Assembly (NCBI GenBank): GCA_963748285.1
Contig: CAVVIF010000009.1
Location: 52,262 to 116,261 of the forward strand
Direction of reading: 5' to 3'
Source of the DNA: an uncultured Microthrixaceae bacterium
GTDB taxonomy: Bacteria > Actinomycetota > Acidimicrobiia > Acidimicrobiales > DATDAH01
Length of the DNA stretch: 64,000 bases
Under the pieces are notes generated by a model. That model was not told the DNA's origin, made no database searches, and saw only the letters and a program-made list of their open reading frames with translations. Each line of letters opens with the position of its first letter. Within the stretch, counting starts at the first letter, position 1. Shown in pieces: positions 5,049-24,912 of the stretch. The position numbers and the translations under genes are program-made.

Positions 5049-5357
5049 AGGCCGTGGGTATCGACAACCGTAGGGCGCGTGCCACCTTGCATTCCAACGA
5101 AGCAGATCGGGAGGGAGGTTGGCGGCGGAATCATCCCCGGCAGGTTAGCTAGGCTGAACCTAGAGGCGTGTCGGCTCGGCTCGAATCCGATGGCCACGCT
5201 GTGGCGAGTAGGGTTTGGGCCCTTACGTCTGTCCGAGATCAACTTGAGCGCCGTTCCCTGAAGCCGACCGGTATAGGGCCTGATTACATTGCTGCCTGGA
5301 TGTCGGCTCAAGCGCGGGGAGTCCGCTTGACATGTGGAGTGAAGTCGGTGAGCGTCG

Positions 5358-6573: not shown

Positions 6574-6653
6574 CGGTCCAGCCGGCCTGTACCCGGCTCC
6601 AAACCCGCCCGTCCCACTCCCCCGCGTTCATCTGACCAGGACGGCTGAGAGCG

Positions 6654-7351
6654 ATGCGAGTCATCGGGTTCGTCCCCTCGAGGTTGAACAGCACCCGGCT
6701 GCCGTCGAAGAACATCCGACCACTCGGAGGGGTACCCCTCGTGAGCCGAGCGGTCGCCGTGTTGTCCGAGGTCGACGCCATCGACGAGACAATCGTGTAC
6801 GCGAGCGATGACGCGGTGATGGCCCATGTCGACGAGTCGCTTGCCTGTCGCTTCGTCGAGCGGCCGTTGCGGCTCGATGACGACGCGACCACGGCCGAGG
6901 ACTTCATCGAGGGGTTTCTCGACCAGGTCGCGTGCGATGTCGTCGTGCTCCTTCATGCCACCTCGCCGTTCATCCGACCGCTCACCGTCGCGCGCTGCCT
7001 GTCCGCAGTGGCCGATGGCGATCACCAGTCGGCGTTCGCCGCCTTGGCGGTCAGGCGATTCTGCTGGTTCGAGGGGCACCCGCTGAACTACTCACTCGAC
7101 GCGCCAACGCCCCGCACCCAAGAAACCTCACCCCCGTCGTCGTCGAGCAGTCCGGGTCTACGTCTTCACTCCGGGAGCTGTTCGAGCAGTCCCGCTCCCG
7201 GGTCGACGAGAACGTCGTCGCGCTCATCGACGAGGTCGAAGGCCACGACATCGACACTGCGGCCGAGTTCGCGATGGCTGAGGTCATCTTGATCGGGGGG
7301 AGCCCTCGAGATGGACGGCGATCAGGACCGGGCCCGCCAGTCGGGCCATGA
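6654..7351 (+). CDS. Acylneuraminate/ulosonate cytidylyltransferase family (CMP-sugar synthetase, NeuA/KdsB-like); frame changes near 7110-7160
   Basis: The N-terminus MRVIGFVPSRLNSTRLPSKNIRPLGGVPL is the classic CTP_transf_3 signature. Later VVLLHATSPF appears. The C-terminal part continues in the frame of ORF 6932-7351 (VVEQSG...ELFEQSRSRV...IDEVEGHDIDTAAEFAMAEVIL). Confidence 0.75.
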
Positions 7352-7375
7352 AATCCTGCTGTTCGATCCGAGGGA

Positions 7376-8230
7376 TCAGGTCCGAGGCCGAGGGCACGGA
7401 CCAATCGGAGACGACAAAGGGCCGATTCCTCGGGCACGCAACCACCGGGCGAGGTCGGCAGTCGAGCCGGCAACGAGTTCTGCCTCACCCGGGAGCATCG
7501 TCGTGCGGTTGTAGACGGCCCCACGGGAATAGGAACACATCGCCCGCGCCCGGCGGGCGATGTGCTGGACGCCGGCAGGCTGTCTGGAACGGATGCTCTT
7601 GAGCCGATGGGCGCCCGGCCCGACCCTGTCGTAGAAGGCTTCCGTCGTCGGCCGGTCGTAGAAGTGGACGTTGTTGCCCTTGGTGTTGCCGATGTCCCAC
7701 CCCACGAAGAACAACTCGGCGACGCCGAGGTGGACGGCGAGGTACACAGCGACCTCATACATGATGCCCGGGCCCCAGGGTCGACTCGTCTGCTGATCGA
7801 AGGTGTGCCGCTCGAAGTCCCGGGAATGAGCCAGGCTGTCGTCGAGGCTGGAGCCGTAGCGGATCCATGTCGAGCGCGATGTCGTGGCGGTTCAGCTGCG
7901 GGAAGCCGACGGCCGGGGTCGGCGCGCAGCACACGGATCGTCTCCGGTGAGGGCCCGGTAGCGGCTCACGTTGTAGGCGTTGAAGCACAGGAAGTCAGCG
8001 GCATCCCCGACCACGTCGATCGCCTGCTTGACGGCGATGACCGCCGACCCCTCGAGCGCCCTCTGGAGGGCCGCCTCCTCGAAGTCGCCCAGTGATGGTC
8101 CACAGGTCACGATCGCACAACGACCTCCAGCGAAGGCGTCTTTCAGAACGGCGAGCTGGGCGGTCGAGTCCCGGTGTTTGCGCACCTCCTCCGCCAAGCG
8201 CCGAGTCTGCTCACGCATGCAGCACGCCAC
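7376..8230 (-). CDS. DUF115/MAF-like or GT42-like (sialyltransferase-like) protein; at least two frame changes
   Basis: The N-part is GRCAIVTCGPSLGDFEE...VIAVKQAIDVVGDAADFLCFNAYN. The C-part is GPGIMYEVAVYLAVHLGVAELFFVGWDIGNTKGNNVHFYD. As I recall it, this resembles the Cst-II motif SGVYMCAVAIALGYKEIYLSGIDFY. The pieces lie in three frames (7892-8230, ~7760-7900, 7376-7762). Confidence 0.45.
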
Positions 8231-8236
8231 CCTCGC

Positions 8237-8879
8237 TCAAGCCGGCATCGTGCAGCTCCAAGAGGCTGTCAACGACCACGACCCACGCGTCGCGATCGTT
8301 TCCCGCCAGTCCGCCCTCTCGGTCCAGTGCGAGACGAACACGAAGTCGAGTTCGTGTTCCACTGCGACCTGGTAGTCGAGCTCGCTGTCGCCGATCAGGA
8401 CCGCGGGACGCTCGGCATCGGCCATCAGTTGCGCCACGAGCTCTGACTTGGCCGTCGGGCTACCGAAGATCCCGGCGAAGTCCGAGCTGAGCCCACGCTC
8501 GCGGAAGATCGCCCGCAACTCCTCTTGATCGCCGCCGGACACCACGTAGGCCAAGCCACCGGAATCGGCGATGGCGGCGAGAGCGCGGAAGCGCGGGATC
8601 GGCCGCGGCCGACCGCAGACCCTCCCGGCTCAGTTCACCGAAGCGGCCGAGGAGCCGCTCGACCTCACCGACCTCCGGTGGGCGGTTGAGGATCTCTGCG
8701 AAGAAGTGGTCGAGCTTCTCGTACCGGGAGACACCGGCGTTCTCGACGTGATATCTCACGAAGTCGGTGGAGGCGGCGGCGCCGTATGAGGCGGTCACCT
8801 CCGCCATCGCCCGGGATTTCACGGTGTTGGAGTCGAGGATGACGCCATCGCAGTCGAACAGCCAGGTGCGGTAGGTCAC
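8237..8879 (-). CDS. HAD-superfamily phosphatase; one frame change near 8590
   Basis: GTG at 8879. HAD motif I is LFDCDGVILDS. The C-part is in ORF 8237-8554 (AYVVSGGDQEEL...LIGDSELDYQVA). Confidence 0.7.
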
Positions 8880-8881
8880 GA

Positions 8882-10521
8882 TCAGACCGCGTCTGCGGGC
8901 GACGGCTGCCTGATCTCCTCCGCATAGAGCGATGATTGCGTGATCGGATACGTGGTGCGGGTGAGTGAGACGATCGGCGGGACTGACGGGTCCTCGGTGA
9001 AGAGGTCGAAGATTCCGAGCATCTCTTCCTGACGGGGATCGCCGGCGTCGAAGCCGTCGAAACCGGTGAGCAGGATACGACGAGCGCCCCCGCCGACGCC
9101 AGGGCCATCGCATACGCCGCCGCCTCGAGGCGAGGCAGCACGCACTCTGTGGACCCGATCGCCAGCTCGCCGGTGCTCACCGTCAGTCCGTAGTCCCGCA
9201 CCTCACCGGCGAACGGGAGATCACCGAGGTGGTACCGGATGGGCTCGGGCATGAAGACCGGCTTCGTCGACTCGGCGATCCGAGGGCCGTCGATGAGCGC
9301 CCGCACAGGGTGGCAGGCGACCAGGCAGTCGACGAGATCGGTCTCGACGGGGGGGACCACGTTGAGGGCGATCACCATCGGCTCCTTCTCGACGATGTAG
9401 CGCTCGATGTCGGTTCGTCTCGTCACGCCCGAGGGCCCGGGGGCGACGATCAGGACGTCGGCTCCCTGACACCAGTCCGTCGCCTCCCACGATCCGGTCG
9501 ACGGCTCGAGGCCAGGCTGGGTTATCGCCGAGCCGAGCCTTCCTGCTGAGTAGCGTCCACCACCGTCACGGCGAAGGTCCTCCAAGGCAGCGACGATCTC
9601 GTCGAGGTCGTAGCGGTTGTCCCGGGTCATCTCCTGGATGTAGGTCGGGTGGATCCCGTAGGAGGCGGACAGGAAGTAGAAGACGTTGGTCCCCCAGCCG
9701 TACTCGTCGTGGAGCTGCCGGAAGTCCGTTGTCACGGGCCCGACGAGCGGCAGGTGATCGACCGTTGCGAGACCGTGGGCGGCCAACTCGATGGCCAAGT
9801 ACTCGGTCCTCGCATTTCCGGGACCCCTTCCCATGCCCAGCAGGGTGCCGTCGACCCAGTGGGCGCCGTGCTCGACCGCCATCAGCGAGTTGGCCATGGC
9901 GAGAGACATGCTGTCGTGCATGTGACAGCCGATCGGGCCGGAGTAGCCATTGCGAACGGCGCCGATGATGGAAGGGATCTCCGGGCCGCGTATCGCTCCG
10001 AACGAGTCCGCGAAGTAGGCCACCTCGACATCCCAGGACTCGGCGTACCGACCGAACTGGGTGAAGTCCTCGGTGGAACGGTTGCTGGCCTGCATCAGGT
10101 TCACCCCGACCTGGTACCCGAGCTCGTGCAACCTCGTGACCGCCGGCTCGAGCTCCTCGAGCTCGTCGTAGTTCGTGGCGAACCTGACCAGCGAGACGGG
10201 GGTGGAATCCGCAGGACCGAACAGTCCTTCGATCACGGCAACAGGACCCTCGGGCCCGAGGACCTCCTTGGCGTTGACCATCACCCCCCATGTGATCCGT
10301 GTGGGGAGGTCGAACTGCCCGAGGAACGCGTCGGTCGTGTACACGAACGGACCCAAGTACCTGTCCTGGATCGGTCTGCGGAACCCGATCTCGACGACCT
10401 CGACCCCCGCTGAAACGACCGCGTCGAGGTAGCGCTCAACGACCCGTGGTTCGAAGTCCCAGTCGTTGTAGTAGCCGCCGTCCCGAAGCGTGCAATCGAG
10501 CAACACGCATGATCCCGCCAT
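8882..10521 (-). CDS. HMGL-like (DRE-TIM) aldolase fused to a C-terminal Rossmann-like domain; one frame change near 9085
   Basis: ATG at 10521. VLLDCTLRDGGYYNDW and GCHMHDSMSLAMANSLMAVEHGAHWVDGTLLGMGRGPGNARTE match the metal-binding D...HxH pattern of HMGL-like aldolases. The C-domain is ADVLIVAPGPSG...AAYAMALASAGARRILLTGFDGF. Stop at 8882-8884. Confidence 0.75.
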
Positions 10522-10592
10522 GTCCACTGTCGAACGAGCGTACCACTCCGCGCTCGTCGACCCAGGGCACCATTCGGGCGTCACGAAGCCGT

Positions 10593-11390
10593 TCAGCCCG
10601 GCGCCCCGCTCCCGCTGCCGGTCTGTTCGGGCCCCTCGAGACGGGGACCAATCGATGCCGAGCCGTCGTCGACCACGCGCACCCACTCTGGTCGGCGATA
10701 GCCGAAGTGGGAGATCTCGGAGCGACATTGCCACTCGATCGACCGATTGGCGGCTGAGGAGAGCACGGCCGACCGCGACGTTCTCGTCTGACCTTCGCAG
10801 CGGCAGGGCGGGCAGGTCGAAGGACCGATCCTGCAGAACGAGGGAGAGCCCCTCCTCCAGGCGGTCGAACTGGATGACGTGATCGACATCGAGTCGGCCG
10901 TCTGACGTATACTCCCTCCCAGTCACTGATCCATTGGTGCTGGAGCACCCAGTCGCTGACCGGGGGGCGATCGTCGGGTGGGAGGTTCTTGTTGTAGAAG
11001 TAGTACCAAGACACCGCCTTGTCCCACGGGTTGCGCTCGACGGTGAAGGTCGTAAACCGGTCCCAGCGCCGACGGCCGAGCCGAGCCCGGATCTGGAACG
11101 CCTGCATGTGCTGGTGGTATCGGCGGAGGCGATGCAGATCCGCTAGCGGCTGACGGACGCCGCTGCCCTGCAGGCGCCACCTGTTTCGCGCCAAGCGGGT
11201 CACCATCTCAGGGAGAGGGTTGAACGGCCCACCCCAATTCCGAGGTAGATGACCCTCCCTCCGCCGGTTCGACCGGCGTGACCACTGCGTCCCGACCCGC
11301 AACCGCGGAAAGCGCGCATTCGATGCTCGTGCCCGCCGTCTTTCGCGTCTTCACGAAGACGAAATCGTGCTCGTAGCTGATGATCGTCAA
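10593..11390 (-). CDS. Sulfotransferase (family-2-like); at least three frame changes
   Basis: The N-terminus is MTIISYEHDFVFVKTRKTAGTSIE (a PAPS 5'-phosphosulfate loop-like KTAGTS). The middle is FTVERNPWDKAVSWYYF. The C-part is DVDHVIQFDRLEEGL...EISHFGYRRP. The pieces lie in four ORF-track frames. Confidence 0.6.
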
Positions 11391-11435
11391 GGCCAGCGCC
11401 CCGAAGGCCGACGGTTGCGGTCCGGCCGCTCGGCC

Positions 11436-12301
11436 TCAGTAGACGCACTCCCACCACAGCCCTACTGACCGCCCGGGCATAGCGGCGATGGAGCAGGGCC
11501 CCACGGACGCGCCGCAGCGAGTACTGCGCCAGGGCGATTCGGCTGAGCTGCCACTCCGCCTTCGGCTCGGCCGGACCGTGCTCTCGCCAGTAGCCGGCGT
11601 AGACGAGGTCGAGTAGCTCTCGTGGCGACGCGGCCAACGACTGCCGGAGATCCATCGCGCTCCGGGCGAGCCAGGCGACCTCGTGCGCCGCAGTGCGCAC
11701 CTCGTACCGAATCGGGAGGTCGCCGACACGGAGTGTGCCTCCGTCGTCGAGGAAGAAGTTGTAGACGCCACAGTCCAAGAAGGCCACGACGGGCTCGACG
11801 GAGTCGGCAGTGCGGGCCAACTTCGTTCGCCTCCCCAGCCGGGGAGTGATCTGGAGCGCGAAGTCTCCGGGCCGTGTCCTGCGTGGTCGGTCCAGAGGCG
11901 GCTCCACCTGCGACGGCGAGATGGAACTTACGAAGCTGCCCAGCGCAGCGCGCCACCAGAGCCCGCTTGCTGTGGGGGTCCAGGGAATCGGAGGCGAGGA
12001 GCGTTGCGACGTCCAGTCCGCGGTAGCGGTCCATGACCAGTGCACGGGCACGAGGCAGATAGCCGACCGACTGGATCGTTTCGATGCCCTGCAACGTCAA
12101 CTGCTTGTCGAGCGCTTCGTAGGCGGCGGAAGTCTCCGGCGTCCACGGCGCACGGTCCGGCTTGGACACCTTGGCGACGAATTCGCGACCATCTCTCGCG
12201 CTCAACGCGTACATGTGCGAGGTCCGACTCTCCCACGTTTCGTCCACGCGGAAGTCGTCATCGAAGCGGTCCCGGCACTCGGCAAGGAGCTCGGCGGTCA
12301 C
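11436..12301 (-). CDS. Protein-kinase-like fold phosphotransferase (APH/Kdo-kinase-like); frame change near 11930; 3' end uncertain
   Basis: The N-lobe is YALSARDGREFVAKVSKP...ALVMDRYRG (ORF 11462-12910 frame). The C-lobe is VVAFLDCGVYNFFLDDGGTLRVGDLP...LVYAGYW (ORF 11200-12051 frame). I could not align the catalytic motif confidently. Confidence 0.4.
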
Positions 12302-12396
12302 CGATGCAACAGCGACGGGGACCGTCGGACCCGCCCCCACGTGTGGTGGCGTCAGCGGCCCTGCTGCCGCCGGTGAACCCTTGTCCTCACGGCGGT

Positions 12397-13319
12397 TCAC
12401 GGCACGACTCGCCGCGGGTATTCGTAGCTGTCCATGAGTCGCCGACAACCTGTCTCGATGGCGGCCCGGTGTGCGGACCGTAGCCCTACCGTCCACGAGT
12501 CGTCCCCTGCTACCTCCACTGGTCCCCGCTCGAGTCCCACGTTTCCCCACGCAAGGTGATGCTTCTCGACCTGGACGATCCCACGTCGAAGCTGGGTGCA
12601 GATGCGATCCGCGCCTATCGCCTCGATGGTGGTCGCCGGGTCGGCGACGAAGTCCTGGTAGCGCACTCGGACCGCCGAGCCTGCGGAAGCCGACCGACTG
12701 AGACGCTCGACTGCACGGTTCGAATGGTTCCACCGATGGCTGTCGGCGATGACGCTGGCCAGTTCCCGACGGGGACTGAGCTTGCCGTAGCCCTTGCGGT
12801 CGTAGAGGTCCCGCCCCCGCCGTAAGCGAGAGTGGATCGCCCCCCGAGGATCGCGGACAAGATGCACGATTCGAAGGCGCGAGGCCGCGCACGACAGCGC
12901 CGCCGTCCATCCAGGATGATTCGACGAGTCAACGATCATCGCCGAACCGGTCGCCTCGAGGAGAGCAGAAAGGGCCGGTTTGACGAGGATCTCGCCCATC
13001 TCGTGCGGCCACGTCCCGCTGACACGACGGGTCCAGCCCTGACCTGAGTGACGCGTGATCGATGCCGCCAAGTGGGACCACTGGATGGAGCCGTCAGACG
13101 CCACTGCCTCGAGGACCGGACCCCATCTCGGACAGGAGTCAATCGGGTCGCCACACGAGCACTTCCGCCCGAGTGCGACTGACTGCGGGAGGTAGGCGAG
13201 CTCGCCGACGTGGATGGCGCCACTCGAGTTTGAGGACAGCGCTTCTCCGAGAAGCGTCGATCCGCTGCGGGGGAAGCCGGCAATGGAGATGACGGTATAG
13301 GCGCGGATTCTCCCCTCAT
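12397..13319 (-). CDS. Sulfotransferase (P-loop type); single-base frame change in a G-run next to the start codon
   Basis: ATG at 13319-13317 is followed by a GGGG run (13315-13312). One extra G would give MRGRIRAYTVISIAGFPRSGSTLLGEAL (5'-PSB loop), in frame with ORF 12397-13104, which contains RIVHLVRDPRGAIHS (3'-PB-like). Confidence 0.75.
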
Positions 13320-13326
13320 GGCTGCG

Positions 13327-14560
13327 TCAACCGGGTCCCCCGCGGGACGCCACCGCCGCCAACAACCGCGTGACGGCCTGTTCTGTGTGGGCGGACATGA
13401 AGTGCTCCCGGTAGAGGATCGACGCTTCCTCCCCCTTCCGCACCACCCCATCGGGTACGTCGAGCCACTCGGCGATCTCGCTCGCCGCCGAGCTCGGATC
13501 GTTCCCCGCACGATCGCTCCGCCCTTCGGCCTCTGCGATCCGTCCGCGAGTAGATAACTGGCTGTGCCGATCTCGTCCGACACAACCACGGGTGTCCCAC
13601 GACTGAGCGACTCGAGCACGGCCATGCCACCATCCTCGCGGGCGAGCGACACGAAGACGTCATGCGTCTCGTAGAGGTGCCACATGTCGTCGTAGGTGAC
13701 GTCGTGGCGCCATTCGACCCGATCGGAGAACTCGAGATCGTCGGTGAGCCGACGCAGGTCGGTCAGGTAGTCGCGGGCGTGTTCGGACCGCTCTGGCGAC
13801 GAGCTGCCCAGTCCCGAAGCGACAATGGTCACACGCGCCGGGTACCGAGTTCGACGAGTTCGTGCCCAACCCGAATGACGCTCTCGATTCGTTTGAATCG
13901 GGCAAGGCTCCCCACGAAACAGGAGTCGAATCTCCGCATTCCCGAGGTACGAGCGTCCGGATGGCACGCTGGTGGTCGTCGTGGAGAACGGAATCCAATA
14001 GCTGTCGAAGATCGGTCCATTGTGGGTCCACGCTGCTGAAGGAGAGATCGGCGTGAACTTGAGCGGTTTCGCCCTGTCGAACGGACGGACGAGCAAGGCC
14101 GCCACCCTCTGCTGGGCAGGTCCCAATCGAGGCCACTCGAGCGGCCGGATGTTGTAGAGGACGAAGACGACCGGGACACAGTGGCGAGCAACCACGTTCC
14201 GACGATCCCGAGTCTCGTCGAACGAATGACCACGAAATCCGGCCGGAAGGAGCGAAATTCTCTCGCCAGTGCCATGAGGCTGGGGGTGTACTCCCAGTAG
14301 CGCAGTGGCTTACGCCCAGTCAGACGTCGCAGGAAGGATCGGGCGTTCGAGAGAACGCTACTGCCGACCAGGACGCAGTCGGGCGGCACGATCGACGTGG
14401 TCTCGGGCCGCTCATGTGTATTGATGAGGATCCGGATGTCGCACCCGAGGTCCCGAAGGCTGTGCACGAATGCATGGAGATTCGGATGGAAGAGGGGGAC
14501 GACCAAGAGCCCACGGGGGTGCCGCCCGCCCACGGGTGGACGAGTCACACCTCGGGTCAC
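13327..14560 (-). CDS. GT4-family glycosyltransferase; at least four frame changes
   Basis: The GTG at 14560 overlaps the upstream stop (GTGA). Pieces: LLVVPLFHPNLHAFVHSLRDLG..., IRLLFVGSLARFKRIESVIRVGHELV, RVTIVASGLGS..., and VFVSLAREDGGMAVLESLSRGTPVVVSDEIG. The tail DPSSAASEIAEWL...AVASRGGPG ends at TGA 13329-13327. Confidence 0.7.
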
Positions 14561-16363
14561 GAAGCAGCGACGGACTGGGCGGGCCTGTTGGCCAGTTCCA
14601 GCACCCGCTGGTAGTACGAGTTCGAGGAGAGCAGCACCCCAGGTTCATCCACTGCTTGGAGCTGCCCCGATTCGAACACCATGAGCCGATCGCAGTTCGT
14701 GAGCGTAGACAACCGATGAGCGACGATGAAGAGCGTTGTCGTCTGCCGCAGTTCCTCCAGCGTGCTCTGAATCGCCGCCTCGGACTCGAGGTCGAGCGCG
14801 GCTGGTCGGCTTGTCCAGGACCACGACGGCTGGCCTGCCCACCAGGGCTCGCGTTATGGCGACGCGCTCGGCGTTGCCCGCCGGAAAGGGAACGCCCCTC
14901 ATCGCCCACGGGTGTGTGTAAGCCCTCCGGCATCCCCGAGAGGTCTCGCTCGAGGTGTGCGCTCTGCGCTGCCTGAACGATGAGGTCGTCCTCCACGTCG
15001 TCGCGAAAGAAGCGGATGTTGTCCGCGATCGTCCCAGCAAAGAGCAATGGCTCTTGCGGCACGAACGCGAAGAGGCTCGTCCATGTCCTGAGGTCGAACT
15101 CGCCGGCGTCAACCCCGTTGACCAGATGTTCCCCGTCGTCGGCGAGCGCAGGCGAAGGAGCAGCTGGACCAATGTCGACTTCCCCGCACCGGACGGGCCG
15201 ACGATGCCGATCATGTCGCCTGGATGCGCCGCGAACGAGATCTCCTGGAGCGCCGCCTGCCCGGGGGTGTACTCGAAGCCCACGTCATCGAAGCGGAGCT
15301 CCTCCACCACGTCGAGTCCACGGTGCCCGTGCACCCGTGCCCCTGCGAATCTGGCCTGACTGGCCCGCAGCCGCTCGATGTACGGATTGGCCGCCTGAAG
15401 GGTCTGATAGTGGGTCTGAGCCTGCGTGGCGTACGACGAAGCCCGTACGAAGATCAGGAGGATCGCGGTCAGCGCCGCGAAGCGGCCACTCCCGGTTGCG
15501 TACAAGATCCCCAGACTTGCCACGATGCCGAGGCCGAGAGCGGTCTGGTACAGGTCCGGCAGGGAGCTTTGGGCGAGGTTGGCACGGAACCGATCGCGTC
15601 GGACCGCATCGTCGATGTCACGCGCGCCGTCGACCCACCGGTTCAGCGACGCCGAAGACCTCGATCTCTTGAGCCTGCGCGGTGATCTGCACGAGGAAGC
15701 TCACAAAGCGCAGGTTGGCAGACGCCGACCTCCGGTTGAACAGCCGAACCAGGCGTGAAAGCGGACGCAGTGCTGCAAAGAGCACAACCAAGGTGACGAT
15801 GATCAGCACTGCGAATCGCAGGTCGAGGAGGAAGGCCGATATGGCGAGCGTGGCCAGCGTGCCGACACCCGCGAGAAGTCTCGTTGCGGCCGACACCGCC
15901 ATTACGTTCTGCTGGACGAACGTGGTGGCCATGTCCTGGAGATGACCAGACCGCTCGTCTGCTTTCACCGACCACGGGGAGCTCAGGTAGGTGGACAAGA
16001 CGTCGCTACGGAGTTCGTGGAGCACCGTTGTGGACATCTTGGCGGATAGCACCTTGGTGACGAGGCGCAGCACGAGGCGCACGGCGTGAGACCGAACGCC
16101 ACGGATAAGGCCACTCCGACCGACAGGCTGGCGTCCAACGGGCCGGGCGAGAACGCAATCGTCGTCTGGTCGGCAGACAGGGCCACCGCCACCTCAGCAA
16201 GGATGACCAGAAGAAGGGTCTCGCTGATGCCGACGAGAACTGAGGCCCCCGCGATGACGATGAGTGGTGAACGGTGCGCACCGAGAAGCTCGAGCAGGTC
16301 CGTCCACGACGTGTCGCCTCGACTACTCTTGAGCAGCCGACGTATTGATCGGGCATTCGCCAA
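14557..16363 (-). CDS. ABC exporter, fused permease-ATPase (MsbA/type I exporter-like); several frame changes
   Basis: TMD pieces are in ORFs 15983-16363 and 15618-16082. The NBD has Walker A GIVGPSGAGKSTLVQLL, then LSGGQR and VVVLDKPTS. The C-terminus is TTLFIVAHRLSTLTNCDRLMVFESGQL, with TGA at 14559-14557. Confidence 0.8.
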
Positions 16364-16729
16364 TGTGCGACGTACACGCTTTCTCGACGCCTTGGTCTTC
16401 GACCTCGTCGTCGCTCAATCTCGCACTCTCTACTAGGTCCGCAACGCTCGGCACAGCGACGCATCAAAGCTGCGAGCGCTCCTTCGCCGACAAAGCCAGA
16501 GTCGGGCGAGCCGATCCGCCAGAATGCCAAATCATACCACGGGGTCCGCGCCGCACGCAGTTGTCCACGTTGCAGAAGGTGATGAAGGTGTGCGACGACT
16601 GTAGAGCCAGGAGGAGCATCCCAGTGGACCCCAGCGAGCGACGAACGTCAACGGAGGGTAGACGGCTGGCCGCCGTGGCAGGACGGTGCTCGACACACGT
16701 CGCATGACCTCACGATCCTACGGGTCACG

Positions 16730-17442
16730 TTAACTGTAATCATAGCCAAGCACTTCAAAGTCCTCCGAGTAGAGGCGATTACAATCTCCCTTGCTCGCTG
16801 GTTCCACACGATCGTCGTCGTCCTTCTCTGACCGGTTCCATGGATATCGAGCGACAACTGAAAGCTGCTCAGCAACGACTCGCATTGCGGACAGATTCTC
16901 GATCTGCACAATGGAGTCGAAGGGCATCCTAAACGACAGGCCAAGTAGACCCCGGCGAGTAGTTTGATATCTGCGGATCAGATGACTGTCGTGTTGGCTA
17001 CTGCTGGAAGGATCTCGATGAATCGATCGAATTCCAGTTCGAGAATCGACTCGACCTGCGCCTCCACCGGATCCTGACTTGTCACACCCAACCACGGATA
17101 GAAGATCACCTGGTGTCGCTTGAGTCGATACGGATCCACGGCGCTCAGCGCTTGGCGCGGCCTGCTCCGGAGTTTCTCCCAGTAGAAGGACTCAAGCCGG
17201 TCATAAGGATTCCGCGTTAGCAGAGTATAACTAGCCGATGACAGGTGGGGCGCAACAGAGCGTGCAACAAGATGGGCGTAACTGCGCCGACTGGAGAACC
17301 GTTCAAGCGAGGGTTGGCTGAGGAGTGTCTGGGTCATAACTTTTGGATTTGTCGCCAAGTAGTGATTGCGACTCGGCTTTGAAGATCCACATGTTCGAAA
17401 TCCCCTCTTGCACGCTAGGTAGATGGAACACTGCTTGAGCAT
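16730..17442 (-). CDS. Sulfotransferase (family-2-like); one frame change near 16985
   Basis: TLLTRNPYDRLESFYWEKL matches the family-2 RNPxxRxxS pattern. The C-part is FDSIVQIENLSA...NRSEKDD...LYSEDFEVLGYDYS in ORF 16730-17095. Local G+C is low. Confidence 0.65.
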
Positions 17443-17689
17443 TTCACCCGGGACAACTCCACGCGACGACAGTCAGCGGTTAAGTATAGGAGCACTTGAC
17501 CGGACAATCGAAACGAGGCTCGTCGAACTGATCTTCGTCAGCGTCCCGTGAGGCGTAGTAGATAAGCGAGATGTTTCCACCCGTTGGTGGGGCCACCGGA
17601 GAGATGATCCGACGTGACCTAGCGGGGTACACGAAGGAGAACACGCCGATGACCCTCACTCATCATGACCTGTCAGAACGGCTCGAGAA

Positions 17690-18151
17690 AGTAAGGCGGG
17701 CGAGACCGATGTTGTCCGCTCGAGCCTGACCTGGATCTTCCAAGAGCTCATCGAGGCCGAAGCGACCGCCCAGATGGCGCCGCGCCATCGGGCGCACCGA
17801 GTCCGGACCGCGAGCGCCGCGGTCACCGGCCACGGCTATTCTCCACGGCGGCGAGCGATGTCGACTTGAAGACCCCGAAACTCCGGACCGGCAGCTTGAT
17901 CCCGTCGCTGCTGAGAACGCCGGCATATCGGGCCCTGGTCGGAGTCGTGATGGAGGCCAACGGTGCGCGGTGTGTCGACCCGCAAGGTCGATGGCCTGCC
18001 CTCGCATGGAGAGGCTTGCGGGACCCACCCAACCGGGACCCGAAGCGCTCGACCATTGCGCAGGCAACTCGAAGGGGCTTTCAGAGAAATCTCTATAGAA
18101 GTCATCTCGGACAGAGATGTCGCCGTACACCCTAGCGCTGAGCCTATTTGA
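17690..18151 (+). mobile_element. IS256-family transposase remnant (N-terminal third only, frame-shifted)
   Basis: FQELIEAEATAQ..., DVDLKTPKLRTGSLIPSLL, RALVGVVMEA and GVSTRKVDGL are spread over three frames. These match the IS256 hallmarks (LMEAE, PKLR.GSF.PSLL, GVSTRKVDDL). The remnant truncates at about 18151. Confidence 0.65.
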
Positions 18152-18330
18152 TTCCGTCGCGCTCGCGCGATGCAGCACGGGTCCTCGGGTGTACTCCTTT
18201 CAGTAAGGCTTTGACGGCCTTCGTTCTAAGAAGGGACTGGCTCATACGATTCTTTTGGGCCCCACAACAGGCTCCGGAGCCCTGCGACGCTTGCGCGCTC
18301 TAGACTCCGACGCGCCCGTGAAGGTCCGAC

Positions 18331-18995
18331 CTAGACCTGATCGAAAGCCCGAACCGTGATGATATACCAAATCGCCATAGATCCCAAAGAACAGTGGATG
18401 CAGGTCGAGTCATTGGTCCGGGTGAGCGGGAACCAGTCATAGCCACCACGATCTAGTTGCCCAAGGAGAGTTCCGCCTACGTCGCTGACTGACCTCCCAT
18501 CCTCATCAAGCCACCGTGCTGGCATCAATCACCCCAATGTCACTCCAGAATCCCACCGTCGTCGCACAGAAGCATGGATGCGGTTGCCTATCGCCGATTC
18601 TCGAGTCGCTGGACGGCGGCGAGTGGATAGTCGTCCAGAATAGTTCTAATGGGCTCGAGTAGCCGGGCTATCGGGAAGGCATCACCATCGAGGAAGATCA
18701 AGATATCATCCGATCTTTTGGTGCGACCACTGATAATTTCCGCCAAGAGGTTCAGTCGCATGGCGTGATCCGTACCCCCAACGGAAGGCTCTGGGGTCGC
18801 TGTGGTCACGAAATCAAACTTACGGTGATGCTCCTCCGAAATGCCGTCTAACGAGGCGTAGGTCCAGAATGGTGTATCGACGTTCTCCTTGAGGTATCGC
18901 CGCTGGATGTCGATCCATCGGTCATCACGCCAGTGAACGGTTGCTATGTGGACATTAGGACCTCGACCCCGAGTGTTCAGTGGGGGTAGAATCAC
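18331..18995 (-). CDS. Nucleotide-diphospho-sugar transferase-like protein (DxD), disrupted
   Basis: ILIFLDGDAFPIARL is a DxD-like motif. After RLENR the sequence continues in another frame as GDRQPHPCFCATTVGFWSDIG, then in ORF 18331-18528. The family was not identified. Confidence 0.4.
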
Positions 18996-19088
18996 GGAGT
19001 CTCAGAGCAGGTACTCAGAGCTTCCAAGCGAGACCAGATGGTTGACATTGACTCGGGATCAAGTCGTCCGGAAAGTCGGTGTGGTGAA

Positions 19089-19775
19089 CTAAGTTCGAAT
19101 CAAAGAACGCGTGGTCTGGATAGCCGAGGTTGTACTGAACACATAAATGCCGGAGCTGCCGCGAAGGCGGTCACGATCGACGTCGAATCGCAGCAGGGGG
19201 AAGGGCGCCTCAGCATGTTCCGAAATGAGCCGCTCATTGTACACACGCCAGAGCTCGGGCGCTCGTCTCTGAGAGAGTTGGCTCGTTCGGTTCCTGAGTG
19301 AAGCACAAACGGCCATTGGGTGTCGATATATTCCACCGAAGCAGATTCCAGAATCCCACAAATGCCGTTTCCATTCATCCAGCACAAGCAAGGTACGGGG
19401 ATCCTTGAATCCCCAAGGTTGGCATGCCGAAGACATCGATGATACAAGACGACTGAGTCGTGTGCGCTGGTCTTGCGTCCACGAGTTCGGGTACCGGGGT
19501 CTGTCCCAACTGCCTCCGTTCGCTCTCAGAACCGAGTCATGCAATTGAACAAGTGCTCGGTCCTCCCTGTTTCCGAGCTTGTTATGGGTGTTGCGCTCGG
19601 AGACGTTGCCGAGGTGCAGTCCGGAGGCTTGTAGACCTCCTGCCAACCAACTTGTGCCGCTACGGTGCATTCCGAGAATGACGACAGGAGGCAACGCCGT
19701 AGGCTCTGTAGCTGGTTGCACGGTCCTAACGTTAGCCGAGGAGACGGGCAGGCGATTTGAGTCCGAGCGAAGCAT
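19089..19775 (-). CDS. Sulfotransferase (P-loop type)
   Basis: VVILGMHRSGTSWLAGGL is a 5'-PSB loop. FKDPRTLLVLDEW is 3'-PB-like. The 228-aa ORF is mostly continuous, with a possible frame change in the last ~60 nt. Confidence 0.7.
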   Translation of the reverse strand: MLRSDSNRLPVSSANVRTVQPATEPTALPPVVILGMHRSGTSWLAGGLQASGLHLGNVSERNTHNKLGNREDRALVQLHDSVLRANGGSWDRPRYPNSWTQDQRTRLSRLVSSMSSACQPWGFKDPRTLLVLDEWKRHLWDSGICFGGIYRHPMAVCASLRNRTSQLSQRRAPELWRVYNERLISEHAEAPFPLLRFDVDRDRLRGSSGIYVFSTTSAIQTTRSLIRT

Positions 19776-19833
19776 CCCCTACTTTGACCCACTCTTGCGC
19801 TGAGGTGGTGACTCCATCTCGTGAGGAGTCCTG

Positions 19834-20646
19834 ATGCGCCGTCCACATCCTCTGGAGTTCCGGCGCCGGGCCGTCGGCCTGGCCAACCAACGCGACGAGC
19901 AAGGGTGAGCAGGGCACGCCGGTAGCCCGGGTCGCCGAGGACCTTGGCGTCGCTGAGAGTTGCCTGCGGAACTGGATCGCGCAGGCCGAGATCGACTCAG
20001 GCCGCCGGGAAGGCCGAGCACCGCCGAGCGGGCCGAAGCTGGTCGAGTTGCGCCGCCGGGCTCGGTGCTGGAGTCCGACACGAGATCCTGAAGCGGGCCG
20101 CGGCGCTCTTCGCCCGGCCTGCTGGAGGTCGGGGACCCTCGCGGCGAAGTGCGGGCGGGCTACGGGGCACCTAAGGAAGTCGTCCGGTCCATCTACGAAC
20201 AGGTACGACGCCGACCTCCGCGTCGCCTTCGGGACCCATCGGCCCCGACTCCTAAGACCCGACACCGCCAGAGGCCCCTCCCTCGGCCGCACGCTGCTCG
20301 AACGTGAGACGAGATCGCCGTCTGGCACCAAGCGCACGTCTCCAACGGGCCGACGGGTGGCGGTCAACAACCTCATCGGAGGGATCAAGCGGGTCGCCTT
20401 CGATCACCTTCACCAATCGCCGGATCCAGGCCCGGCGCTACGCCGGCAGGCCAACTGCGAACTGTTCCCGGCCATCATGCGCCGCTGGAAACGCGAGGCG
20501 CCCCATATGCACCACGAGATGGGGCAATTGAGACCGGGCGAGGCGTACTGCGTCTCGCGGGGACCAGCCCTCAAACCGGCGGGGTCAGAGCATGGGCGAC
20601 ATATTACTTGGCCGGCCTACGGGGTCAGAGTCACCGGCGATCTTGT
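19834..20646 (+). mobile_element. IS3-family transposase remnant (orfA plus the start of orfB, decayed)
   Basis: MRRPHPLEFRRRAVGLA...VARVAEDLGVAESCLRNWIAQAEIDSGRREG...LVELRRRAR is IS3/IS911 OrfA-like. Downstream orfB-like fragments are multiply shifted and truncated at the next gene. Confidence 0.6.
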
Positions 20647-21490
20647 TCACGCTGGACTCAAATCCCCTAGACCGGCAGAATGGAGTAGTTCCAGTTCCGC
20701 GGCTGTGAAGAGCGGACGGAAATTTGGACGACGCAATAGATGAAGCACCTCGGTCGGGAATGATGTCTCCCGGAACCTCTGAGCCAGCTCAATCGCTGTC
20801 GGCACCCGATCCTGCCCAGTGAACGAAGAGCCGCCACCCTCCTTGGAGATCCCTGGAACCGAGTCGAATTCGAGATCGATCTCGCCTAGGAGGGCGCGTC
20901 CGATAGTCTGGGCTCTCGTCAACCCAACGGTCAAACCAACAGACGTGCCACTGCGACGCGTCGGCCTTGCTCAAGTCCAACAGAACCTGCATAAATTGCT
21001 CATCGACCTTGGTGGTTGGACCCGCCCGCTCCGTCTGCGCTCTTGAGGCGTTTCGATGCAGTCGGGAAGCTACCAGGTTTAGCGTGGAACGCCTTATGAC
21101 AATTGCCTCCGTTGTAGACGGACTAGAGAGCGCCTGTAGATAGTCGAGTCGACGCTCCTCAGTAGAAACTACGATGAAATCAGACTGCCGGATCTCCCTG
21201 CGGCGACTCCATACAGCTTGAGCGAAGCTTCTTCCAGATCTGCCCACGTCATTGAGAAAGACAGTTCGGCCACTGCCAGTTCGCTGGAACCTCGTCCCGC
21301 AGGCTTCATCCGTGATAAGTGCTTCGTTCTTCTCCTCAAGAGCATTCACCAACCACGCAACAATCGCATGATTCCCACTCCGACTCATTCCAGTTACAAA
21401 GAATCGCCGCTTGCCGCGTGAAAGCCAATTCAAGTAGACACAGATAGATCGCTCAAGGAGCGACTTCGCGGAACGGTGAAGGATGTTCAT
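20647..21490 (-). CDS. P-loop, sulfotransferase-like hypothetical protein; one frame change near 20900
   Basis: RRFFVTGMSRSGNHAIVAWL resembles a sulfotransferase PSB loop. The C-part is in ORF 20647-20934 (LLGEIDLEFDSVPGISKEGGGSSF...). Confidence 0.4.
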
Positions 21491-21879: not shown

Positions 21880-22330
21880 CCCCGTTCGTTGAGAGCTCTC
21901 TGCGACCGCCCGTTCAATGGATCGGCCAGCCTGCGAGGCACGGCCATCTGCACCCGACCTCTACTCGACGGGCTCGAGCCGACGCTCCTGATGGACGGCG
22001 AACTCTTCAGTGGCCCGGCGTCAGGCGCACGACTGGCGTGATGCAGGTCCCCGGCGAGGCGCGCTACGGGCTTTCAGAGAGCTCCGAGAGAGCGGTTGAA
22101 CGCCACCGGCCATTGGCGACGCCGTCGCGGTCTGCGGGAAACAGGGCCGGGACCAATCCTCAACGCCATCGAGCACGGGGCATCTCCAACGGCCGCGTCG
22201 AAAGGTATGAACACCAAGGCCCGACTGATCGTCCGCCGCGCCTACGGCTTCCACACCGCCGATGCCGCCGTGGCGCTCGTCATGCTCGCCGCCGGACCGA
22301 TCAACCTCTGCGCTGCCACACAAACAAGCC
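21880..22330 (+). mobile_element. ISL3-family transposase remnant (C-terminal end, frame-shifted)
   Basis: ILNAIEHG / ISNGRVE / MNTKARLIVRRAYGFHTADAAVALVMLAAGPI matches the conserved ISL3 C-terminus (SNGRVEGLNNK.RL..RRAYGFH...AL.ML). It is split over two frames. Confidence 0.6.
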
Positions 22331-22432
22331 CCCGCTCACACCGCGACATGACCACATCACTGTCAGGAGAGCCGGTAATGGCGCAATCATCAGAAATACC
22401 ACTATCGCCGTAGGACTAATACACTGGCCCGG

Positions 22433-23179
<747 letters not shown>

Positions 23180-23183
<4 letters not shown>

Positions 23184-24416
23184 CCCTCGACCCCAAGGCG
23201 GTGCAAGAAGGACTTCCCCCTGCTGGCCCGGGAGGTCCACGGCAAGCCCATCGTGCTACCTCGACTCGGCCTCGTCCTCCCAGAAGCCCCAGGTGGTCCT
23301 GGACGCCATGGACCACTACTACGAGACCACCCACGCCAACGTGCACCGGGGCGTCTACGCCATCGCCGAGGAGGCCACCCGGCTCATGGAGGACGCCCGG
23401 GCCAAGCTGGCCCGCTTCATCGGCGCCCCCTCCCCCGCCGGCGTGGTCTTCACCAAGAACGTCACCGAGGCCATCAACCTGGTGGCCAAGACCTGGGGCA
23501 AGGCCAACCTCGGGCGCCGGCGACGCCGTCGTGCTCACCCAGATGGAGCACCACGCCAACATCGTGCCCTGGCTGATGCTGGCCGAGGAGACCGGCGTCG
23601 AGCTGCGCTGGCTGGGCGTGACCGACGACGGCCAGCTCGACCTGTCCGACCTCGACCGGCAACTCGACGGGGCCAAGCTGCTGGCGGTCACGGCCATGTC
23701 CAACGTGCTGGGCACCCTCACCCCGGTCCGCCGGCTGGCCGACGCCGCCCACGCCGCCGGCGCCCTGGTGCTGGTCGACGGGGCCCAGTTCACGCCCCCA
23801 CCTGGCCACCGACGTGGCCGAGCTGGGCTGCGACTTCTACGGCCTCACCGGCCACAAGATGTGCGGGCCCACCGGCATCGGCGCCCTCTGGGCCCGGGAG
23901 GAGCTGCTCGAGGCCATGCCCGCCTTCCTGGGCGGCGGCGAGATGATCCGCGACGTCCGGATGGACGGCTGGACGCCCAACGAGATCCCCTGGAAGTTCG
24001 AGGCCGGCACCCCGCCGATCGCCGAGACCGTCGGCCTGGGCGCGGCGATCGACTACCTCGAGGGCCTGGGCATGGACGCGGTGCGGGAGCACGAGGTCTC
24101 CCTGACCGCCTACGCCCTGCGCACGCTGACGGAGCGCTTCGGCGACGACCTGACCATCCACGGCCCGCCCGAGCCCGCGGCCCGGGGCGGGGTCATCTCC
24201 TTCTCCCTGGCGGACATCCACCCCCACGACATCTCCCAGGTCCTGGACCAGGAGGCCGTCTGCGTGCGGGCCGGCCACCACTGCGCCAAGCCGCTCATGC
24301 GGGTGCTGGGCGAGTCGGCCACCGCCCGGGCGTCGCTGTACGTCTACAACGACACCGAGGACGTGGACCGCCTGGGCGACGCTCTGGCCCACACCGTCGA
24401 GTTCTTCGCCCGGTAG
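23180..24416 (+). CDS. sufS: Cysteine desulfurase SufS; at least four frame changes
   Basis: ATGA overlap at 23180-23183. Pieces: [83 protein letters not shown] (PLP lysine) and [11 protein letters not shown] (catalytic Cys). Confidence 0.9.
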
Positions 24417-24429
24417 GTTCAGCGCCACC

Positions 24430-24912
24430 ATGCCCGACCTCGAAGACCTCTACCGGGAGATCATCCTCGACCACTACCGGTCGCCCCGGAACCGGGGTGA
24501 GCTGGAGAGCCCTCCGGCCATGCGGGCCGAGGGCTTCAACCCGCTCTGCGGCGACGAGGTCGTCGTGTACCTCGACGTCGAGGACGGCGTGGTCAGCGAC
24601 CTGAAGATCTCGGGCCAGGGCTGCTCGATCAGCCAGTCCTCGGCGTCGATGATGAGCGCGGCGGTGAAGGGCAAGACCGTCGACGAGGCCCGGGACCTGA
24701 CCCGGGCCTTCAAGGCCATGATGTCGATCCACGAGGCCGAGATCGCCGGCGAGGACGGCGCCCCCGAGGCCGACGCCCCCGAGGTCGGCCTGGGCGACCT
24801 CGCCGCCCTGCGGGGCGTGGTGAAGTTCCCGGTGCGCATCAAGTGCGCCACCCTGTCCTGGAACACGCTGACCCAGGGCCTGGACGAGGCCGCCGGCGAG
24901 CCCACGCCGTAA
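24430..24912 (+). CDS. sufU: SUF-system NifU-family scaffold SufU
   Basis: Intact 160-aa ORF: LYREIILDHYRSPRNRG...NPLCGDEV...ISGQGCSISQSSASMM...RIKCATLSW. Confidence 0.9.
   Translation: MPDLEDLYREIILDHYRSPRNRGELESPPAMRAEGFNPLCGDEVVVYLDVEDGVVSDLKISGQGCSISQSSASMMSAAVKGKTVDEARDLTRAFKAMMSIHEAEIAGEDGAPEADAPEVGLGDLAALRGVVKFPVRIKCATLSWNTLTQGLDEAAGEPTP

Follow-up and report, generated by a model that had tools for sequence, protein, structure and literature searches.

Several bacterial gene clusters that direct the formation of sulfated glycans have been described. The xss cluster of Synechocystis sp. PCC 6803, which serves the sulfated exopolysaccharide synechan, carries two sulfotransferases (STs) and a Wzx/Wzy/PCP export system; its STs belong to distinct subfamilies (PF00685, PF03567, PF13469 types) and lie amid multiple glycosyltransferases, and the parts of the paper that treat the cluster do not mention PAPS genes for it (PMC8205485). 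Capsule clusters with ST genes have also been reported for the marine Gram-negative bacteria Vibrio sp. KMM 8419 and Cobetia marina KMM 1449, where the glycans are chemically proven to be sulfated and their structure has been determined (PMC11641403, PMC11766843). At the level of single enzymes, rhizobial NodH and LpsS and mycobacterial Stf are PAPS-dependent bacterial carbohydrate STs with the P-loop fold, acting on lipo-oligosaccharide, LPS or trehalose.

The locus considered here belongs to the MAG of an uncultured, Microthrixaceae-like member of the Acidimicrobiia and was analysed within a 64-kb stretch of DNA (the window). Like xss, it combines ST genes of distinct families with multiple glycosyltransferases, and PAPS-synthesis genes are likewise not seen: a motif search for APS kinase, sulfurylase and CysD/N found none anywhere in the window, as had been noted earlier. 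Apart from its host, which is not a cyanobacterium, it differs from xss in its ST-like genes, which number five and fall into four families, and in its ABCB-type half-transporter, and no regulators of the XssS/R/Q type were seen in it. In contrast to the Vibrio and Cobetia loci, it comes from another phylum, has a higher ST count and has a product predicted from its gene content. Unlike NodH, LpsS and Stf, its STs form a five-gene set accompanied by an exporter of their own.

The ST-like genes lie in a segment of reduced GC content (58–67% across ~4.2–22.4 kb versus 72–76% in the flanks), which is variable and was probably acquired horizontally; the drop to a minimum of 58% at 18–20 kb suggests recent foreign DNA. 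This island is surrounded by a large surface-polysaccharide locus, in which the profile search of the flank genes detected Bac_transf (148.8 bits) and Polysacc_synt_2 (331 bits) proteins, GT4s, a hexapeptide acetyltransferase and a BY-kinase-like ATPase. One flanking GT4 is 84% identical to its counterpart in a Microthrixaceae MAG, and almost all of its listed matches are from Acidimicrobiia or unclassified Actinomycetota MAGs, in line with the actinobacterial origin proposed in the initial annotation. The embedding of the island in a polysaccharide locus supports a sulfated surface glycoconjugate, already suggested there, as the most economical reading of the gene content.

All the previously named ORFs were recovered on the minus strand, close to the coordinates given, and the data support ST-family genes of more than one type that alternate with a glycosyltransferase gene and the gene of an ABCB/MsbA-type exporter. 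Each of the five ST candidates at 10.6–21.5 kb has a PSB-type loop at its N-terminus together with a 3′-phosphate-binding R-x7-S motif. The residues concerned do not vary in any of the three alignments made (A1, ST3b and Sulfotransfer_3-type families, see below) and were read straight from the sequence for the two Sulfotransfer_2-type genes. The initial count of four clear STs and one possible ST holds insofar as all five are ST-like, but in Pfam searches with hand-repaired proteins (cut-offs 27 bits for Sulfotransfer_3 and 22 bits for Sulfotransfer_2) one is clear and one is at the threshold, while two remain under the cut-off even after repair and A1 gives no match.

The clear case is the Sulfotransfer_3 gene at 12397–13319 (51.2 bits; motifs GFPRSGST and VRDPRGAIHS), which was also matched by Sulfotransfer_1 (25.1 bits). 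Its start ATG at 13319 is off-frame by one base within a GGGG run, as read from the DNA. All but one of its 58 homologues carry PF13469, and one of them (P0008) bears the source name ‘LPS sulfotransferase NodH’; identity to NodH, LpsS and Stf is low, the best database match to any protein being at 37%. The Sulfotransfer_2 gene at 16730–17442 (22.4 bits, TRNPYDRLES), with one frameshift near 17000–17190, is the borderline pass. The second gene of this type, initially delimited as 10593–11390 and now as 10593–11435 (KTRKTAGTS, ERNPWDKAVS), scores 16.6 bits and has at least three frame changes in the frame map; it is taken as an ST because its intact homologues from another Acidimicrobiales MAG (locus L012; 40–46% identity) pass the Sulfotransfer_2 profile with 26.9 and 34.6 bits.

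The fourth candidate, at 18990–19778 (Sulfotransfer_3 20.7 bits), belongs to a family designated ST3b and regarded as distant Sulfotransfer_3; some of its 1737 proteins carry PF13469, and most have no Pfam call. As assembled, the ORF spans 19089–19775, but the C-terminus LGYPDHAFFDSNLVHH (~50 aa) was located in another frame, which puts the gene end near 18990. Comparison of the ST3b family with the Sulfotransfer_3-type family by hhalign gave a probability of 79.6% over the 3′-phosphate-binding region. The family alignment has an invariant GMHRSGTS loop and an invariant R151-x7-S159 pair; the latter lies in YRHPMAVCAS, the true 3′-phosphate-binding motif, so that FKDPRTL, previously proposed for this role, was rejected.

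The fifth candidate, at 20647–21490, is assigned from its motifs, a fold model and the cluster context of its homologues to an unnamed family, A1, of ST-like P-loop proteins. The gene has one frameshift directly after ...SPDYR, near 20.9 kb. The protein has no sequence match in Pfam, NCBIfam or PDB; a search of 1.84 G representative proteins yielded 93 relatives, and the family alignment reveals invariant R37, G39 and H41 in GMRRSGNHA, E111, and R134-x7-S142. Its AF2 model (pLDDT 84.6) confidently predicts a P-loop fold, and Foldseek returned only weak matches, to P-loop kinase and ST folds, such as SULT1C2 (TMq 0.46) and APS kinase (0.43), none of them at E ≤ 0.001. The A1 homologues are situated in Wzx/Wzy or capsule clusters, one of which contains an APS kinase (212.8 bits).

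Fewer than five of these proteins may be true STs, with A1 and possibly ST3b employing the shared P-loop fold for phosphoryl or other group transfer and the glycan being only modestly sulfated. The missing Pfam ST match in 57 of 58 A1 members, the missing Pfam call in most ST3b-family members, and the hhalign comparison of A1 with ST families (53% over the P-loop only, 1.4% otherwise) all point that way, as does the fact that Foldseek ranks small-molecule kinases and STs alike for A1. This is nevertheless unlikely, given that the R-S-G-N-H loop of A1 fits the bacterial ST loop R-S-G-S/T-T/S and lacks the Walker A Lys-Ser/Thr, that the R134-x7-S142 pair has the 3′-phosphate-binding spacing of other ST families, and that the A1 homologue beside the APS kinase is the sole ST candidate of that EPS cluster. 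For ST3b, the alignment with the Sulfotransfer_3-type family across the 3′-phosphate-binding region likewise argues against another activity.

The initial annotation placed two GT4s among the ST genes. One stands, at 13327–14644 on the minus strand (Glycos_transf_1 58.2 bits, Glyco_trans_1_4 45.3 bits; at least two frame changes), but the other, at 18086–19001 on the same strand, has no Pfam family match; this unclassified protein with a DxD motif, designated GTx, is a conserved partner of ST3b-family genes and has one frameshift near 18600; in tblastn, its homologue from the related locus L008 maps to two frames. The exporter at 14557–16414 (minus strand) was correctly described as MsbA-like: it has at least four frame changes in the frame map, scores 83.1 bits with ABC_tran and shares 35–39% identity with homologues from L012 and L054 that are intact at 585 aa. 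The L012 homologue has both ABC_membrane and ABC_tran, and its closest PDB matches are ABCB-type transporters; the fused TMD-NBD half-transporter architecture is also that of the PglK, Wzk and MsbA flippases. The orphan ORF at 11436–12301 (minus strand, one frameshift) had been called a kinase-fold gene from motifs seen by eye; this identity is unsupported, since there was no Pfam match even at E ≤ 10, no NCBIfam or PDB match, no homologue beyond a self-match (P0179, 99% over 55% of the query), and a poor AF2 model (pLDDT 40). The suggestion that the glycoconjugate is also phosphorylated depended on that assignment and is likewise unsupported.

The left part of the island encodes an HMGL-like (DRE-TIM) aldolase of ~550 aa (8909–10575, minus; 91.5 bits; one frameshift near 9100), which is 47% identical to an L012 homologue scoring 93.5 bits, and a weakly matched HAD-like hydrolase (8237–8900, minus; Hydrolase 17.3 bits, below cut-off; one frameshift) with the DxDG motif LFDCDGV. 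These are followed by a cytidylyltransferase of the CMP-sugar synthetase type (6636–7350, plus; CTP_transf_3 65.6 bits), another GT4 at 5358–6627 (minus), which lies outside the range initially described, and a SAM-dependent methyltransferase (4331–5144, minus; Methyltransf_11 38.2 bits; one frameshift). The two halves of this GT4, separated into frames by one frameshift, match Glyco_transf_4 (41.7 bits) and Glyco_trans_1_4 (89 bits), and it is 48–55% identical to the L012 GT4.

Related modules occur in other Acidimicrobiia. Four loci (L006, L008, L012 and L050) each contain three to four Pfam-confirmed ST genes within 4–15 kb and lie at the same neighbourhood, beside a conserved GT4 (59–84% identity); no description of them was found in the literature searched. 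In L012, the aldolase, a GT4 and the same ABC exporter occur together with three Sulfotransfer_2 genes, all of them intact and at identities of 35–57%, a finding in favour of the island's left module being a functional unit. ST3b and GTx homologues are adjacent in L008, as well as in L089, where GTx is present in two copies and the pair adjoins Wzm/Wzt and glycosyltransferases. The four loci differ from the island in gene order and ST-family mix, none having its full set of families, and they are intact short-read MAG contigs, unlike the frameshifted island. Hence, the high density of ST genes noted initially, with five in 10.9 kb, is confirmed but not exceptional in the lineage; the island is absent from the two nearest relatives, and related ST modules are present in other Acidimicrobiia. 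The argument from the rarity of multiply sulfated bacterial glycans is weakened by these homologous modules at the same locus, ST-bearing polysaccharide clusters having moreover already been described.

Nearly every island gene needs frameshift repair. Between 10593 and 21490 no gene is intact as assembled, the uninterrupted ORF at 19089–19775 lacking its C-terminal ~50 aa, so function is not readable from the present sequence alone. The searches turned up no independent assembly: identity reached 37% for the closest homologue of the Sulfotransfer_3 gene, and ST3b gave a self-match of 100%, with the next at ~55–58%. The right third (16.4–22.4 kb) is a mosaic rather than a single neat operon, broken up by a truncated IS256-family (Mutator) transposase (17562–18150, plus; Transposase_mut 24.2 bits on 17695–18132), a degraded IS3-family remnant with the orfA HTH (19835–20740, plus; HTH_Tnp_1 29.9 bits) and a C-terminal ISL3-family fragment (21900–22410, plus; DDE_Tnp_ISL3 19.6 bits, below the cut-off of 23) marking the right edge of the island; it may consist of separately acquired, possibly unexpressed genes. 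These fragments between the ST genes, the recent foreign DNA suggested by the GC minimum, the absence from the nearest relatives, and an in-frame stop at 7892–7894 that a simple indel error does not explain could mean that the island as a whole, or else just the right third, is a mosaic in decay that no longer yields a product and in which some disruptions are true pseudogenisation. We regard this as improbable: the frameshift rate of roughly one per kb (~1.2 per kb by count in the island) is the same in housekeeping sufC/sufS and in the whole 73% GC flank, with at least 35 same-strand overlapping frame switches in ~45 kb, and between frameshifts the ORFs retain conserved motifs and remain colinear with intact homologues over the full length. 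The frameshifts are therefore most likely assembly errors, which mostly answers the concern about disrupted genes, and we infer that the living organism has intact copies of these genes.

Instead of a polymer, the STs may act on a glycolipid. A sulfated glycolipid or other small amphiphile resembling mycobacterial sulfolipids or Nod factors would suit an ABCB/MsbA-type exporter, which typically handles lipids, lipid-linked or amphipathic cargo, rather than a Wzm/Wzt type, as well as the lack of an identified Wzx or Wzy gene inside the island and the inclusion of the mycobacterial Stf0 type among Sulfotransfer_3-type enzymes, but such a product has a low probability, since the island contains no lipid, polyketide or acyl-transfer genes, the polysaccharide locus around it includes a priming transferase and a BY-kinase-like ATPase, and the pump type is compatible with a glycan because PglK/Wzk-type ABCB transporters flip lipid-linked oligosaccharides.

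Taken together, the sulfated-glycan cluster is real and probably functional, and its product is most likely a surface polysaccharide with heavy sulfation. GT4-type glycosyltransferases would assemble the glycan on a lipid carrier inside the cytoplasm, with the Bac_transf priming enzyme in the flank, and it would be sulfated before export, as PAPS is cytoplasmic, by up to five PAPS-dependent STs that fall into four sequence families (two Sulfotransfer_2 members and one each of Sulfotransfer_3, ST3b and A1). A CMP-activated acidic sugar, formed via the HMGL-like aldolase, the HAD-like protein and the cytidylyltransferase, is probably also added, plus a methyl group, and the product would be exported or flipped by the ABCB/MsbA/PglK-type half-transporter, with PAPS supplied by genes elsewhere in the genome. 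An acquired segment of a polysaccharide locus making a sulfated glycan by this pathway has, in our estimate, somewhat better than even chances of being the right account, and, with similar clusters in related genomes, the island is not unique.

The five sulfotransferase-like genes considered here lie at 10.6-21.5 kb, within a trough of lower GC content (58-67%, at about 4.2-22.4 kb) in a window that otherwise has a GC content of about 72-76%, and all genes of this cluster are located on the minus strand. The left part of this island, beyond the cluster, encodes an HMGL-like aldolase, a weak HAD match, a cytidylyltransferase, a GT4 glycosyltransferase, and a methyltransferase. To the right of the island, a second sufC-sufS-sufU set is followed by a GT4 and an acetyltransferase of the hexapeptide type, together with a Bac_transf priming enzyme, a BY-kinase-like ATPase, and a dehydratase (Polysacc_synt_2), while the far left bears a GNAT, a deacetylase, and a conserved GT4 (3032-4150). 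Given these polysaccharide-type surroundings, the island is a variable insert within a large surface-polysaccharide locus. Three truncated transposase fragments, all on the plus strand, are present in it: the IS256-type (17562-18150) and IS3-type (19835-20740) fragments are situated between the right-hand sulfotransferase genes, and an ISL3-type fragment (21900-22410) is found at the right edge. The lowest GC content of the island (58%) falls in the part bearing these fragments. Scans for tRNAs, Rfam families, boundary repeats, and promoters or terminators returned nothing useful.

The window contains two suf sets: the sufC'-sufS-sufU block at 22433-24909 (plus strand) adjoins the island, and a sufB-sufD-Rieske-sufC block at 39290-45547 (minus strand) lies 15 kb off. 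After the latter, canonical block come a pterin dehydratase and a GMC oxidoreductase in place of sufS/sufU. The two sufC copies share only about 69% DNA identity, which speaks against both a recent duplication and a repeat-induced misjoin, so that misassembly at the duplicated gene was rejected.

Stop-to-stop translation shows that nearly all genes of the cluster are split over at least two frames. At least four frame changes are needed to restore the ABC exporter, at least three for the gene at 10593-11435, at least two for the GT4 at 13327-14644, and one for each of the others; the best-kept gene, 12397-13319, has its ATG one base out of frame, inside a GGGG run. Such damage might be taken for pseudogenisation confined to the island, and this was rejected as the main reading since sufC and sufS, essential housekeeping genes of Fe-S assembly in the right flank (22433-24413), are broken likewise, with one shift in the former and at least three within 1.2 kb in the latter, and the flanks show as many frame switches. 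The frameshift count of the island, about 1.2 per kb, is near the flank rate, with roughly 1 per kb across the window. Over much of the high-GC flank, the GC3 phase plot flips each 200-600 bp; in about 45 kb of flank, no fewer than 35 overlapping frame switches on the same strand were counted, and frame-aware segmentation divided single-strand runs of 5.8, 5.2, and 10.8 kb into 15, 10, and 24 coding segments, respectively. Long homopolymers are not enriched at the frame switches (12.5% vs 10% in controls), hence the error type is not simply homopolymer miscalling. Thus, the window is most likely an error-rich assembly whose frameshifts carry no information specific to the island. ORF-based readings require frame repair here, and because of internal stops in the DNA the proteins used as Pfam queries were repaired by hand from three frames. 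The sequence is too error-ridden to serve as proof of working genes. Elsewhere in the island, a single in-frame stop at 7892-7894 (minus strand), possibly a substitution error, possibly a genuine nonsense mutation, cuts an otherwise continuous ORF (7379-8236) that has no Pfam match and by eye resembles DUF115/MAF-type nonulosonic-acid transferases.

The initial annotation had recognised sulfotransferase families by their motifs, and profile searches sustain this clearly for 12397-13319 and just at the cut-off for 16730-17442, whereas two genes score below the cut-off and one has no match. The protein encoded at 12397-13319 reaches 51.2 bits with the Pfam model Sulfotransfer_3 (cut-off 27). Of its 58 homologues, 57 carry PF13469, and the best is only 37% identical; in their alignment, G20, T22, R156, D157, R159, and S164 are invariant or nearly so, and a Cys cluster is conserved as well. 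One such homologue, 37% identical, is found together with a VapB antitoxin gene inside the S10 ribosomal-protein operon of a metagenomic organism (locus L002, 9648-11754), where the insertion point lies between rpsJ and rplC. The protein at 16730-17442 scores 22.4 bits with Sulfotransfer_2 (cut-off 22). The protein at 10593-11435, as repaired by hand, falls below the same cut-off with 16.6 bits; two intact genes of another Acidimicrobiales metagenome-assembled genome (locus L012), 40-46% identical to it, pass in Pfam with 26.9 and 34.6 bits. None of the seven proteins searched has a match in NCBIfam.

The N-terminal 5'-phosphosulfate-binding (PSB) loop that follows the first beta-strand can be read as GFPRSGST in 12397-13319, KTRKTAGTS in 10593-11435, GMHRSGTS in 19089-19775, and GMSRSGNH in 20647-21490, and its residues vary little or not at all across the three family alignments built around 12397-13319, 19089-19775, and 20647-21490. 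In 16730-17442, this loop is only loosely recognisable (CKRGFRTCGSS). The canonical spacing of the 3'-phosphate-binding motif is that of Arg130 and Ser138 in estrogen sulfotransferase. An Arg followed by a Ser eight residues on occupies invariant columns in the same three alignments (R156/S164, R151/S159, and R134/S142, respectively), and the two Sulfotransfer_2-type genes bear the corresponding motif as RNPWDKAVS (10593-11435) and TRNPYDRLES, i.e., RNPYDRLES in its core (16730-17442).

The protein at 19089-19775, whose C-terminal 50 residues were located in another frame, scores 20.7 bits with Sulfotransfer_3 (cut-off 27) and finds no match in a PDB sequence search. It belongs to a family, here called ST3b, of 1737 members of about 235 aa, most of which have no Pfam call while some carry PF13469. 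GMHRSGTS and R151-x7-S159 are invariant in the family alignment, which matches that of the Sulfotransfer_3-type family at 79.6% probability across the 3'-phosphate-binding region. It follows that FKDPRTL, formerly taken as the P-loop-type sulfotransferase signature of this protein, is not the 3'-phosphate-binding motif, that role belonging to the invariant R151-x7-S159. Next to this gene, 18086-19001 encodes a protein with a DxD motif, termed GTx (about 272-300 aa, no Pfam family), which also adjoins ST3b homologues elsewhere, as one copy in locus L008 and as two in locus L089. ST3b and GTx form a conserved two-gene module, found at 18086-19778 in the window, at 4314-5842 in L008, and at 6171-8551 in L089, where the two GTx copies flank the ST3b gene beside Wzm/Wzt.

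The protein at 20647-21490 has no match in Pfam, NCBIfam, or the PDB, the last searched with both the sequence and the profile of its family, A1. This family comprises 93 representatives among 1.84 G proteins, with E111, the pair R134-x7-S142, and three loop residues (R37, G39, and H41 of GMRRSGNHA) invariant throughout. This loop has no Walker A Lys-Ser/Thr and is similar to the R-S-G loop found in the other bacterial sulfotransferases. An AF2 model made with the family alignment (pLDDT 84.6) gave nothing at E<=0.001 against the PDB in Foldseek; its best TM-scores are weak (SULT1C2 0.46, APS kinase 0.43, SULT7A1 0.43), and the list mixes sulfotransferases with APS, guanylate, gluconate, and NMP kinases as weak P-loop matches. 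As for genomic context, on the metagenome contig L083 (324-926, 8001-8789) an A1 homologue comes directly after a Wzx flippase gene within an EPS cluster of the exosortase type (EpsH/EpsI); an APS kinase scoring 212.8 bits is encoded about 7 kb upstream, and no other gene there resembles a sulfotransferase. Another homologue is found within a capsule-type cluster, and two further contexts are on contigs too short to be informative. Taken together, the protein is probably a sulfotransferase of an unnamed family.

The absence of PAPS-synthesis genes from the window, pointed out earlier, was borne out: motifs of APS kinase, sulfurylase, and CysD/N are absent throughout the 64 kb, and among the related loci motifs of such genes were detected in L010 only. 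The exporter likewise proved to be a fused ABCB/MsbA-type half-transporter. The nucleotide-binding domain of the repaired protein scores 83.1 bits with ABC_tran, and ABC_membrane was not reported for it by Pfam; its intact, colinear homologue in L012 (35% identity over residues 8-594) scores with both models (ABC_membrane 30.7 bits, ABC_tran 113.9 bits) and matches ABCB transporters in the PDB. Of the two GT4 enzymes counted earlier in this range, 13327-14644 stands (58.2 bits), whereas 18086-19001, the GTx gene, is not a GT4. The two halves of the GT4 at 5358-6627 score 89 and 41.7 bits with profiles of the Glycos_transf_1/Glyco_trans_4 type. No Wzx or Wzy was recognised within the island, where the ABCB exporter is present instead; the flank carries the Bac_transf and BY-kinase-like genes along with a candidate polymerase ORF (35621-36565) that has no Pfam match.

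The kinase fold attributed to 11436-12301 (minus strand) was not recovered. This ORF is an orphan, its sole relative in 5.8 billion proteins being its own record, and it matches nothing in Pfam (even at E<=10), NCBIfam, or the PDB, while the single-sequence AF2 model (pLDDT 40) is unusable. Self-matches on a 2.44-Mb contig, at 99% over part of the query for this ORF (P0179) and at 100% for P0059 and P0180, show that the source genome is represented in the protein collection searched. The motifs FVAKVSK, LVMDRYRG, FLDCGVYN (D-x4-N), and RVGDL, 13 residues on, which recall the catalytic core of protein-kinase-like (APH / Kdo-kinase / WbdD-type) enzymes, were noticed by eye only, and a frameshift splits the gene between its two lobes. 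The kinase identity was therefore dropped as a finding and is retained as an impression from motifs.

At 6636-10575, the HMGL-like (DRE-TIM) aldolase of about 550 aa, the weak HAD hydrolase, an unclassified ORF, and a CTP_transf_3 cytidylyltransferase are grouped together. Through a pyruvate aldolase in place of a NeuB-type synthase, these genes could lead to a CMP-activated 3-deoxy-ulosonic acid. The aldolase is kept in L012 with 47% identity.

In the two nearest genomes (L003 and L080), colinearity with the window extends as far as the conserved GT4 at 3032-4150, beyond which they diverge and the island is absent. The best matches of this GT4 are from two uncultured Microthrixaceae metagenome-assembled genomes (84% and 78%), and its matches come mainly from Acidimicrobiia and unclassified Actinomycetota ones, with two records under Bifidobacterium-type labels. 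The host was assigned from these matches, which led to rejection of a Streptomyces-like actinomycete, a reading first suggested by the GC content of 73%. In L012, the ABC exporter, the aldolase, a GT4, and three genes of the Sulfotransfer_2 type are all intact, with 35-57% identity to those of the window. With home-made HMMs, at least one sulfotransferase-like ORF was found in 16 of 80 related loci. Sulfotransferases confirmed by Pfam number three in L006 and in L012, two clear and two weak in L008, and two clear in L050, which has an additional ST3b-type ORF seen by the home-made HMM only; on the metagenome contig L001, glycosyltransferases and an ABC exporter accompany two Sulfotransfer_3 genes. 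The concentration of sulfotransferases, described initially as unusual, is at the upper end yet is a recurring theme in the lineage.

Judging from the gene families, their context, and the fact that PAPS is cytoplasmic, a glycan would be assembled in the cytoplasm on a lipid carrier, would then undergo multiple PAPS-dependent sulfations with probable acidic-sugar and methyl decoration, and would finally be exported by the ABCB pump. Sulfated bacterial polysaccharides are regarded as uncommon, and their enzymes are poorly catalogued. The xss cluster for synechan has two sulfotransferases with Wzx/Wzy (PMC8205485), in contrast to the ABCB-type island described here. Sulfated capsules of marine Vibrio and Cobetia (PMC11641403, PMC11766843) and sulfated exopolymers of Pontiella are likewise described. 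Environmental EPS has been reported to be chemically rich in sulfated glycoconjugates, with the sulfotransferases behind this abundance not being found by homology (PMC10483923). Within the literature covered, our search found nothing tying Acidimicrobiia to sulfotransferases.

It may be supposed, tentatively and with rather low confidence, that among the widespread, uncultured Acidimicrobiia it is common to make multiply sulfated surface glycans with the products of variable loci bearing 3-5 sulfotransferases, one type of which (A1, with its GMRRSGNHA loop, E111, and R-x7-S) has gone unrecognised and is missed by current Pfam models, and that this helps to explain the discrepancy between abundant sulfated EPS glycoconjugates and the few sulfotransferases detected by homology (PMC10483923). 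Sulfated-polysaccharide clusters with sulfotransferases are already known; what is new here is modest, namely, the A1 family, the ST3b and GTx pair, and the lineage-wide pattern. The finding weighs less than initially assigned, since the cluster type is known, the concentration is not unique in the lineage, and the sequence is full of errors. For biochemistry or engineered sulfated polymers, it does supply a set of divergent carbohydrate sulfotransferases, among them a family that has no Pfam model and a conserved pairing of a sulfotransferase with an unknown protein, and the locus, together with its relatives, points to Acidimicrobiia as likely producers of sulfated polysaccharides.
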